A program made the position numbers. Shown here in pieces: positions 57,001-60,000 of a stretch of DNA of 64,000 nt. The number at the start of each line of letters is the position of its first letter. Position 1 is the stretch's first letter. Source of the stretch: Parasphingorhabdus sp. (lineage in GTDB: Bacteria; Pseudomonadota; Gammaproteobacteria; Arenicellales; CAJQKF01); the NCBI GenBank assembly GCA_047615875.1, contig JBLHGU010000004.1, positions 4,955-68,954 of the forward strand, read 5' to 3'.

Positions 57001-60000
57001 ACAAGCCAACCGGCCATCGGCATATTGCTGAAATGCTGCAGAATCTTGGGTTGGACAGCAAAATTCATTTTTCTGCTACCTCCATCGAGATGGTGCGTGG
57101 CATTCTCGCCACCTCCCATGTGTTTCTCAATCAAGCCTTAACTGAAAAAGACGTTTGGAAAATCTATCGAGAAGATTACACCAATGAACCGTTTATTCGG
57201 ATAGTTAAGGAAAGAGCCGGTATTTATCGTTATCCCGAGCCCAAATTGCTCTCTGGCACCAACTATTGTGATATTGGCTTCGAAATAGATCCCCACAGCA
57301 ATCGGCTGGTCGTGATGAGCGCTATCGATAATTTGATGAAAGGTGCTGCAGGGCAGGCTGTTCAATGCTTCAATTTGATGAACGATTTTGATGAGCAAAC
57401 CGCTTTGGGATTCAGCGGCTTACACCCAATCTAGAATACGCCAGATAAAACTGCCATGTGCCGACTTCTGCTCGTTCGTAATGTTGAAGCAATGTCTCCG
57501 CTGCCTTATCTTAAGGCCTTCCAGCAGGTGGCCAGAGATAGCAATGAGTATCAGGGGCATGGCTGGGGTTGTTGTTGGCTGGATAGTCAGAATAACTGGC
57601 AATTTCACCACACTATTCGGCCAGTTTGGGAAGATGACCGAGATGACTTTCCAGACACAAGGCTTTTTCTGGCCCATGCCCGCAGCGCTTTCAGGGATGA
57701 GGGAATTCAGGTTGAAAACAATATGCCGTTTACCGACGGGCATAGAGTATTTCTCTTCAACGGAGAGCTTCGGGGCGTAAAGGTTAAGGCCGAGGGCAGG
57801 ATAGGCGCAGAGAAGCTTTTTAACTACGTAAAGCGATTTGATAAGGGCGATTTCGCAGCGGCTGTTAATAAGGGAGTCGAGGTAATCAAGAAGCGCAGCC
57901 AATACATTCGTGCCATGAATTTTTTTGTTGCTGACTCTGATCGAATTCAAATTTGCTCGGAATTCAACGAACACCCGGAATACTTTCAGATGCAGCAAAC
58001 CTACTTCGGCCAAACTCAGGTGATATGTTCGAAGGCATTTTCCATGGACCAACACAGTTCCTGGCAACCCATCGACAATCACAGTACTTTTGACTTTCCT
58101 GTAAATCAACCAGGAGTGGATCCGGTTAAATGATTATTGTAAAAATTGGCGGTGGACAAGCCATTAATCTTGAAGGCATTGTCGAAGATCTGGCCAGCCT
58201 CGAAGAACCCGTTATTCTGGTACATGGCGCTAACACCTTACGCGACGAGGTGGCCGCACAGATGGGCATGTCGAAGCAAGTTGTTACCTCGGTTAAGGGC
58301 ATCAGCAGTGTATTCTCTGATCAACAGGCTATAGATGCCATTCTGCTTGCTTATAGTGGTCTCAGAAATAAACGCCTGGTTGAGCTTTGCCAACAAAATG
58401 AAATCAACGCTATCGGCCTTACCGGCCTCGACGGAGGATTGATCAAGGGTAGACGAAACAAAGGCATTCGCGTCATGGAAAATGGCAAGAAAATGCTTAA
58501 GCGTGATTTCTCTGGTAAGCCGGTTTCCATCAATACCGACTTGCTGACCACATTGCTGGATAAAGGCTACACCCCTGTCTTAACTATCCCCCTGTGCGAC
58601 GAAAGCGGCACGGCAATTAATAGTGAAAACGATGATATTGTGAATTGTCTGCAAGCAGCGATTGATGCTGATACGGTAATCCAGCTTATTGAGGCACCAG
58701 GTTATCTGACAGACAAGGATGACCCCACCTCGGTTATTGATAGATTAGAGAGAGCTGAAATGGAAGCGCTGATAGAGAAAGTCGATGGCAGAATGAAACG
58801 CAAAATGATGGCGTTAAATAAACTGGTTAGAGGCACGGTTAAAAAAGTGATTATTGCCGATGGAAGGGCGCCAAACCCAATTAAAAACGCACTGGATGGC
58901 TATGGTACCTGGATTGAATGATGTCAGATTTAATTAGCCTCGAACAGGCCCACAGTTTTGAAGTTTATCCGAAGCGCGATATCTGTTTAACCCATGGAGT
59001 CGGCGCTGTTGTTTTCGACGAGACGGGTAAGGAATATATAGATTGTGTAGCAGGTGTTGGCGTGGCTAGTCTCGGTCATGGCAATGAAGAGATTGTTAAG
59101 GCTGTTACCGAGCAAGCTAGCAGGTTAATTTCCTGCCCAGGCATTTTTTATAATGATGTTCGTGCCAAAGCCTTGCAGCGTTTAGCAGGTATTGCGCCGT
59201 TGGGGCTCGATCGTGCATTCCTGTGTAACTCGGGCACGGAGGCTATGGAGGCCGCCATAAAATTTGCCCGCTTAACCACAGGTAAAAATGGTTTTATTAG
59301 TGCTATGCGGGGTTTCCATGGCAGATCTATGGGCGCATTAAGTGCGACACATAAGTACCGCGACGAATTTGAACCGCTGATTCCAGGTCACCAGTTTGTA
59401 GCCTACAACAAGCTCGATAAGCTTGAGTCCGTGATGGACGAAAATACCGCTGCCGTTATTCTAGAATTAGTACAGGGTGAAGGTGGCGTAAGGCCCGCGA
59501 ATCCGGATTATATCGATGGCGTGGTGGCTTTATGCAAACAACGGGGTGTGTTGCTTATAATCGACGAAATCCAGACCGGTTTCGGTAGAACCGGTCATAT
59601 GTTCGCCTGTGAAAAATACGGCATTGTTCCAGACATGATGACCATAGCCAAGGCCATGGCAGGCGGGTTGCCCATGGGGGCGGTTCTTTGCAGTGAGCAG
59701 ATTGCCTCAGCAGCAGGAAAACACGGCTCAACCTTTGGTGGTAATCCCCTCGCCAGTGCTGCCTGTATTGCGACCATTGATTATATTCAAAACAATAACC
59801 TGTGTGACAACGCCAAAGCCCGTGGTGACTGGCTTGCACGGCAACTTAATAGTGAAAGCTTGAAAGTGGTTCGTGAAATAAGACAACAGGGCCTTATGAT
59901 TGGGATAGAGCTAAAGATAAAAGTCAAACCAGTTATTCAACGCCTGCTTGAAGTTGGAGTGCTGGCACTGCCCGCAGGCCCCACAGTGCTCCGACTGCTA

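Follow-up and report, generated by a model that had tools for sequence, protein, structure and literature searches.

The stretch analyzed here (hereafter the window) comprises 64,000 nt of contig JBLHGU010000004.1 (assembly GCA_047615875.1), and coordinates are window positions unless another locus is named. A tight plus-strand operon with the order lysW-lysX-lysY-[Ntn gene]-lysZ-lysJ was delimited at 55384-60084 by open reading frame (ORF) calls, Pfam and NCBIfam. Its fourth gene (57456..58133, + strand) encodes a predicted class II glutamine amidotransferase (GATase)-like cysteine hydrolase of 225 amino acids (aa), similar to EgtC and YafJ and belonging to the N-terminal nucleophile (Ntn) type; we refer to it as the Ntn gene. 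This identity is based on its homologue family, its AlphaFold2 (AF2) model, Foldseek and hhalign; we propose that the protein acts as a LysW γ-glutamyl amidohydrolase. The amino-group carrier itself is encoded by lysW (55384..55548, + strand), a 54-aa protein with a zinc ribbon and an acidic tail (Pfam Zn_ribbon_LysW, E = 6e-19; NCBIfam TIGR01206, 63.1 bits vs. a cut-off of 53.2). It is followed by lysX (55545..56390, + strand), for the ATP-grasp ligase that loads the carrier (NCBIfam LysX, 333.7 bits vs. a cut-off of 275.6; E = 1.7e-90 to Thermus thermophilus LysX 3vpd), and by a gene for a LysY/ArgC-type semialdehyde dehydrogenase (56406..57434, + strand; Pfam Semialdhyde_dh domains, NCBIfam argC 392 bits). 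Downstream of the Ntn gene lie lysZ (58130..58921, + strand), for the [LysW]-aminoadipate kinase (NCBIfam NF010659, 250.4 bits vs. a cut-off of 223), and the last operon gene, lysJ (58918..60084, + strand), for a class III aminotransferase (Pfam Aminotran_3, E = 8e-113; NCBIfam argD subfamily, 427.9 bits vs. a cut-off of 410).

The LysW tail reads EEDWGQ. Its last codon, CAG (55543..55545, + strand), specifies Gln54 at the place of the cargo-carrying Glu of canonical LysW. The lysX start is most likely the GTG at 55545 (MKVGF...), not the TTG at 55536 of the mechanical ORF list; the lysW stop and the lysX start would then overlap as caGTGa. Gln and Glu codons at the end of lysW differ in their first base, and the lysX GTG start is unaffected by this difference.

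The stop of the Ntn gene (TGA, 58131-58133) shares bases with the lysZ start (ATG, 58130-58132), so that ATGA is read at 58130-58133. This overlap had been pointed out in the preliminary description of the window, together with the N-terminus MCRLLLVRN and the motifs GHGWG (residues 34-38), AHARSA (73-78), NNMPF (88-92) and FNGEL (101-105) in their characteristic spacing, and all of these were found. The same description had cautioned that the antisense ORF at 57420-58109 might be the conserved frame. This 229-aa ORF indeed has no stop along the gene in the window, but only 15 of 81 orthologous genes keep the frame free of stops (median, 2 stops). It is an antisense frame of the common low-stop kind, and was rejected as the true gene. 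The sense protein, on its side, has 3289 homologues at E≤1e-3 in a collection of 5.8 billion proteins, invariant catalytic motifs and a confidently predicted Ntn fold, and we see practically no chance that it is not a gene product or that the antisense ORF is the real gene.

The Ntn proteins form a small and discrete family of 287 clusters at 50% identity (1.84 billion representatives), with a relative in at least 580 GTDB species. The carriers of the gene are mostly uncultured Gammaproteobacteria (Arenicellales, Granulosicoccaceae, Poriferihabitaceae), and they also include Longimicrobiales, Vicinamibacteria, Planctomycetota and others. In public annotation the homologues appear as hypothetical or as 'putative glutamine amidotransferase'. 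The hidden Markov model (HMM) search by which GATase_2/4/6 membership was to be confirmed came out negative for the window protein: Pfam returned no match at E≤0.01, and the gathering thresholds of GATase_2, GATase_4 and GATase_6 were not reached. Among 18 relatives, GATase_4 was detected weakly in 9 (best E = 1e-6) and GATase_6 in 5. The sole curated match was NCBIfam EgtC (TIGR03442), at 30.8 bits vs. a cut-off of 218.65 and over residues 35-111 only.

Because the Pfam GATase models did not match, membership in the superfamily was derived from profile-profile alignment and predicted structure. The family profile was aligned by hhalign with YafJ (98% probability, E = 3e-13) and with EgtC (97% probability, E = 5e-11). 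No meaningful alignment was obtained with the E. coli GlmS glutaminase domain; YafJ and EgtC served as bridges to GlmS and PurF, whose residue numbers were checked by motif. The AF2 model (predicted local distance difference test, pLDDT, 86.5; predicted template modelling score, pTM, 0.87) has the four-layer α-β-β-α Ntn fold. EgtC was the top Foldseek match of the model (E = 5e-12, template modelling score ∼0.7), followed by PurF, 1te5, GlmS and 3mdn, all of which, EgtC included, had a probability of 1.00 and are class II GATase-type Ntn hydrolases. Alignment and model thus place the Ntn protein as a predicted stand-alone class II GATase-type Ntn hydrolase, the nearest characterised relative of which hydrolyses γ-glutamyl amides.

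In class II GATases an Arg holds the α-carboxylate of glutamine and an Asp its α-amino group (R73 and D123 in GlmS, R73 and D127 in PurF). Cys2 of the Ntn protein (codon 57459..57461, + strand) aligns with the YafJ Cys, and is the predicted N-terminal nucleophile after removal of Met1. Arg76, within HARSAF (codon 57681..57683, + strand), aligns with YafJ HIRQA and EgtC AVRSA, and by motif with R73 of GlmS and PurF; it is predicted to bind the substrate α-carboxylate, which would be the LysW C-terminus. The Asn102-Gly103 pair of FNGEL (codons 57759..57764, + strand) aligns with HNG of both YafJ and EgtC, and would form the oxyanion hole as GlmS N98-G99. The [ST]D[ST]E motif, which supplies the α-amino-binding Asp (GlmS D123, PurF D127), is absent. 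Gly117 of GRIGAEK (codon 57804..57806, + strand) stands at the place of the Asp; in the hhalign alignments its IGAEK stretch is opposite YafJ TDSEK and EgtC VDSAI.

Residues C2, R76, N102, G103, G117 and K120 are invariant in all 93 sequences compared (93/93 each), whether the LysW of the operon ends in Gln (48), in Glu (31) or is not known (14). A Gly in place of the Asp is what one would expect for a glutamyl residue at the C-terminal end of a protein, where the α-nitrogen is peptide-bonded. Replacement of the Asp by Gly117 together with the retained Arg would therefore fit a peptide-linked glutamyl residue with a free carboxylate, as is present at the LysW C-terminus. A different role, that of an ordinary glutaminase or amidotransferase subunit that acts on free glutamine and supplies glutamate (the LysJ amino donor) or ammonia, would agree with the superfamily of the protein and with its annotation as 'putative glutamine amidotransferase'. 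We consider it very improbable: the Asp that anchors the α-amino group of free glutamine in GlmS, PurF, YafJ and EgtC is here an invariant Gly, a synthase partner domain is absent, and both the Gln-ended LysW and the exclusion of LysK (see below) would be left unexplained.

Two known stand-alone proteins serve for comparison. YafJ, a protein of unknown function (PA1307-type; PDB 1te5; Pfam GATase_4/6), is the best sequence-profile match, and has the same domain size and motif spacing. In contrast to the Ntn family, however, it keeps the GETDSE Asp and is not tied to LysW operons. EgtC of the ergothioneine pathway (PDB 4zfj/4zfk/4zfl) is the best structural match; it is likewise a stand-alone domain of similar size with the N-terminal Cys, the Arg and the Asn-Gly pair, and it hydrolyses a γ-glutamyl amide to the α-amino group of an amino acid, the type of bond present in LysW-γ-Lys. 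The Ntn protein differs from EgtC in several respects: identity is only 15-18% and the TIGR03442 score far below its cut-off (30.8 bits vs. 218.65), the genetic context is a LysW operon rather than egtABCDE, EgtC has an Asp (TVDSA) for the free α-amino group where the Ntn family has Gly117, and the proposed substrate of the Ntn family is a protein C-terminus.

The association of the Ntn gene with LysW operons was analyzed in ∼95 loci. In all of them the gene lies in a LysW operon, and in none in an egtA-E cluster. The window order, W-X-Y-[gene]-Z-J, is shared by almost all of the 80 species loci as far as the contigs extend, and relatives at 28-39% identity are likewise located inside LysW operons. 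In distant members the orders are W-X-Y-Z-J-[gene] (loci L084, L153 and L083), W-X-Y-Z-[gene]-J (L209/L210) and W-X-Y-[gene]-Z-J (L212). The gene has thus shifted its position within the LysW operon, and in no informative locus has it left it; it is an obligate LysW-operon member across phyla and three gene orders. The position after lysJ, found in some lineages, is the usual LysK slot of canonical operons. When the neighbourhoods of the 80 loci were clustered, the only other conserved partner was an upstream phosphoenolpyruvate carboxykinase (PEPCK) gene, in 29 loci. The LysW-like carrier of L084 (3945-4121, 58 aa) lacks the zinc-ribbon cysteines and that of L209 (4829-5062) is lengthened to 77 aa; the EDWGE tail is kept in both.

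In the window, lysJ is not followed by lysK; the next gene encodes an HTH_3 regulator (60252-60533). No M20/ArgE/LysK gene was found in the 64 kb by a phmmer search with E. coli ArgE over all ORFs of at least 80 aa or by a LysK-specific HMM, and none was found by Pfam among the 20 largest other window ORFs. The three checks agree with the absence of LysK noted in the preliminary description.

A control sample, intended as an unbiased one, was obtained by scanning metagenome contigs for DNA encoding PExxEDWG[E/Q]-stop, a pattern somewhat biased to bacterial-type tails. It yielded 80 loci with 75 LysW genes, and 24 of the 80 loci were informative, with enough downstream sequence. An M20 gene was present in 18 of the 24 informative operons and the Ntn gene in 3; the remaining 3 had neither, and none had both. 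The M20 genes (orders W-X-Y-Z-J-M20, W-X-M20-Y-Z-J and W-X-Y-Z-M20) are bona fide lysK, as their products score 401-521 bits with NCBIfam NF003367, [LysW]-lysine hydrolase, vs. a cut-off of 363. The LysK HMM, built from 19 control M20 proteins, recovers E. coli ArgE at 2e-29. It had no match in the window, and none in ∼90 other loci that carry the Ntn gene, comprising the 80 species loci (each with 10 kb of flanking sequence) and the extra ones. The Ntn gene and an operon-encoded LysK are therefore mutually exclusive. The co-occurrence with lysW/lysX and the anti-occurrence with lysK that had been put forward as a check hold at the operon level (18 LysK, 3 Ntn, 0 both).

One operon with neither enzyme (L127, 4968-8214) has lysJ followed by homocitrate-synthase-like and large aconitase-like ORFs, and its LysK must be encoded elsewhere. 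Canonical LysK-type loci (L160, 1494-3072; L093; L097) contain two tandem lysW-lysX pairs or several LysX paralogues, which are probably LysX/ArgX pairs.

LysK (M20, NF003367) and the Ntn protein would share their reaction, LysW-γ-Lys to lysine and LysW, and their operon role, as judged from operon exclusivity, position and the predicted pocket, and they can occupy the same terminal operon slot. In fold and mechanism they are unrelated: LysK is a binuclear metal peptidase, and the Ntn protein a predicted cysteine Ntn hydrolase. In addition, the control LysK operons never have a Gln-ended LysW.

The cargo of LysW is linked through the side-chain γ-carboxylate of the C-terminal Glu. A C-terminal Gln cannot be ligated, and only the Glu form of the carrier can be loaded by LysX. 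Attachment of the cargo to the C-terminal Glu is documented for LysW (PMC12998189). Of 79 LysW proteins from operons that carry the Ntn gene, 48 have Gln as the last residue and 31 have Glu. A neighbour-joining tree of concatenated LysX, LysY and Ntn proteins requires at least five switches between the two residues, and deep clades are uniformly Gln, which argues against sequencing error. When loci were selected by LysW itself, 45 of the 67 nearest LysW ended in Gln and 19 in Glu, and the Ntn gene is present in all three loci checked from this search, L216 (LysW with Gln) as well as L217 and L218 (with Glu). In the control sample, where the search pattern allowed Gln as well as Glu, each of the 75 LysW has a terminal Glu, among them those of the 21 informative operons without the Ntn gene (21/21).

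Gln-ended LysW is thus found, among informative operons, only in those with the Ntn gene (48/79 with the gene vs. 0/21 without it; Fisher p = 1e-7, a value that overstates independence). The at least five switches inside the Ntn clade vs. none outside it point in the same direction as the Fisher test. As in the case of Pup and its enzyme Dop, the carrier terminus varies between Gln and Glu among species that bear the enzyme.

The identity of the product was deduced from LysX and from neighbouring genes. The window LysX has the specificity signature F183-I193-T204-N259S260, and all 72 scored LysX from Ntn-gene operons have F-I-T-NS (72/72, 3 of them in the form F-V-T-NS). According to the Nishiyama group, F-I-T-NS is the signature of the aminoadipate-specific LysX type. 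A homocitrate-synthase-like gene lies between lysW and lysX in three related operons (L214, 9178-10332; L215, 888-2042; L217, 4223-5389). The LysX signature and the homocitrate synthase genes indicate that the operon most likely serves lysine biosynthesis from α-aminoadipate, and that the released amine would be lysine. The operon of L215 stops after lysY, and its lysZ, lysJ and Ntn gene must lie elsewhere.

Taken together, these data suggest that the Ntn protein is probably a LysW γ-glutamyl amidohydrolase with two activities, deamidation of LysW-Gln and release of lysine, in analogy to Dop and its substrate Pup. We infer both chemical reactions, as well as lysine as the product. After removal of Met1, Cys2 would attack the γ-carbonyl of the LysW C-terminal residue, the amine would leave, and a γ-glutamyl thioester would form on the enzyme; its resolution by water would yield LysW with a free terminal Glu. 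If the leaving amine is ammonia, the encoded LysW-Gln would be converted to LysW-Glu (carrier maturation). If it is the α-amino group of lysine, the product would be released and the carrier recycled, which is the job of the metallopeptidase LysK. Replacement of LysK, processing of the carrier Gln, or both, had been the alternatives of the preliminary description; operon exclusivity, the restriction of Gln to Ntn-gene operons and the comparison of the predicted pockets speak for both.

Either reaction alone accounts for less. Release alone would leave Gln-ended LysW unexplained. If the enzyme only matured the carrier, by deamidating the encoded LysW Gln, the release of lysine would fall to an M20 deacylase of the LysK, ArgE or DapE-like kind whose gene lies elsewhere in the genome. 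The confinement of Gln-ended LysW to Ntn-gene operons would follow from such a role, and LysK can sit outside the operon, as in the 3 of 24 control operons with neither enzyme. Yet at least 31 operons with a Glu-ended LysW, including the most distant members from other phyla, keep the gene with all catalytic residues intact. These residues are as invariant there as with Gln-ended LysW, and Gln maturation is therefore not the only job. Moreover, no operon has both enzymes, LysK is present in 18 of the 21 operons without the Ntn gene, and the Ntn gene occupies the LysK slot after lysJ in some lineages. Maturation alone is unlikely, because Glu-type operons keep an intact enzyme and LysK is absent from all these operons.

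An editing or rescue hydrolase that strips wrong or dead-end cargo (e.g., LysW-γ-Glu) from LysW, with tolerance of Gln as a side effect, would explain the association with LysW, the pocket change and the Gln tolerance as well as the dual amidohydrolase does. T. thermophilus LysX is known to load some glutamate (PMC12998189). The mutual exclusion with LysK and the occupation of the LysK slot would remain unexplained, however, and no need for such an editor is evident in canonical operons. We regard an editing function as quite improbable.

Several points weigh against a LysW amidohydrolase with both activities. First, the Gln statistics come from a sample chosen by similarity to the window genes; the 3 Ntn-gene operons of the control sample and the distant members all have Glu, so that Gln characterises a single large sub-clade and not the family as a whole. 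Two loci that were selected by their Gln-type LysW (L214 and L215) end after lysY, with no lysZ, lysJ or Ntn gene on the contig, and are uninformative as to whether Gln implies the gene. The model also offers no explanation for Gln-ended LysW being the majority state in Ntn-gene operons rather than a rare neutral variant. Second, LysK is not always part of the operon, as 3 of 24 control operons have neither enzyme, and a distal LysK, ArgE or DapE-type M20 enzyme elsewhere in the genome could carry out the release. In T. thermophilus, lysK is encoded at a distance from the main lysine cluster. Third, the model does not account for how the enzyme would spare LysW-aminoadipate and the intermediates. 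Finally, the pocket argument is built on alignments and on an AF2 model of the enzyme by itself.

Dop is a functional parallel of the proposed LysW amidohydrolase. It shares its ancestry with the ligase PafA and depends on a nucleotide cofactor. The Ntn protein has no Dop/PafA homology, as its fold matches are all class II GATase-type, and the two proteins are unrelated. Dop acts on the ε-amine of lysine on proteins destined for degradation, whereas the target here would be an amino-acid biosynthetic intermediate. The likeness lies in a small carrier or tag with an encoded Gln, and in the logic of a deamidase that is also a deconjugase, which we propose for the Ntn enzyme. Ligation of Pup proceeds via the side-chain carboxylate of the Glu at its C-terminus. 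Certain species encode Pup with a Gln at this place, which has to be deamidated first; a single enzyme, Dop, performs both this deamidation and the later cleavage of the γ-glutamyl amide (PMC3474595). Whether the carrier pathway independently reached the same logic, with an inert Gln pro-carrier, one Ntn cysteine amidase that would both activate and release, and LysK displaced entirely in hundreds of species, we judge to be evenly balanced. As a speculative extension, the γ-glutamyl-enzyme thioester might be resolved by an amine, which would amount to an ATP-independent transfer.

The full-text literature on LysW or the amino-group carrier protein in combination with amidotransferase, Ntn, deamidation or Gammaproteobacteria was searched, and no description of such an enzyme was found. 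For the LysW route to lysine and arginine, a classic example in the study of pathway evolution, the M20 enzyme LysK is to our knowledge the only enzyme to which the final step has been assigned. We rate the system as a known carrier-protein lysine pathway in which a non-orthologous release enzyme and a pro-carrier would be new. If the proposed function is correct, (i) a large set of mostly uncultured marine, sponge-associated and soil bacteria, spanning Gammaproteobacteria (Arenicellales, Granulosicoccaceae, Poriferihabitaceae), Longimicrobiales, Vicinamibacteria and others, would use an unrelated cysteine hydrolase for the release step; (ii) metabolic reconstructions based on LysK would mis-score such organisms as lysine auxotrophs; (iii) Gln-ended carriers would add a new case to the proteins that are made as a pro-form and require an enzyme for their activation, in convergence with Pup and Dop; and (iv) a stand-alone class II GATase-like family now called 'hypothetical' or 'putative glutamine amidotransferase' would gain a concrete function. 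A γ-glutamyl amidase specific for a protein C-terminus might also be of use as a tool.

The surroundings of the operon were analyzed as well. An Rfam scan of 54500-60600 revealed no lysine riboswitch and no other RNA family. A divergent gene for a MerR-family regulator (54758-55156, - strand) lies directly upstream of lysW, and the XRE/HTH_3 regulator gene (60252-60533, + strand) directly downstream of lysJ; either may regulate the operon. The source metagenome-assembled genome is labelled 'Parasphingorhabdus sp.' (Alphaproteobacteria) by NCBI, and the close relatives of the operon genes are all from Gammaproteobacteria; the mismatch could be due to mis-binning or to horizontal transfer.

Elsewhere in the window, a 519-aa protein with a Fic motif (HPFEDGNGRVHR) is encoded at 52494-54053 (- strand), and a cbb3-type cytochrome oxidase cluster, with a CcoN-like COX1, FixP, FixG and a multicopper-oxidase/cytochrome c fusion, at 15799-24233 (+ strand). 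Adenylate/guanylate cyclase domains are present in three proteins (8113-9507, - strand; 33301-35958, + strand; 45659-47374, - strand); TPR repeats accompany them in two of the three, and an OmpR-type DNA-binding domain is located at the N-terminus of one.

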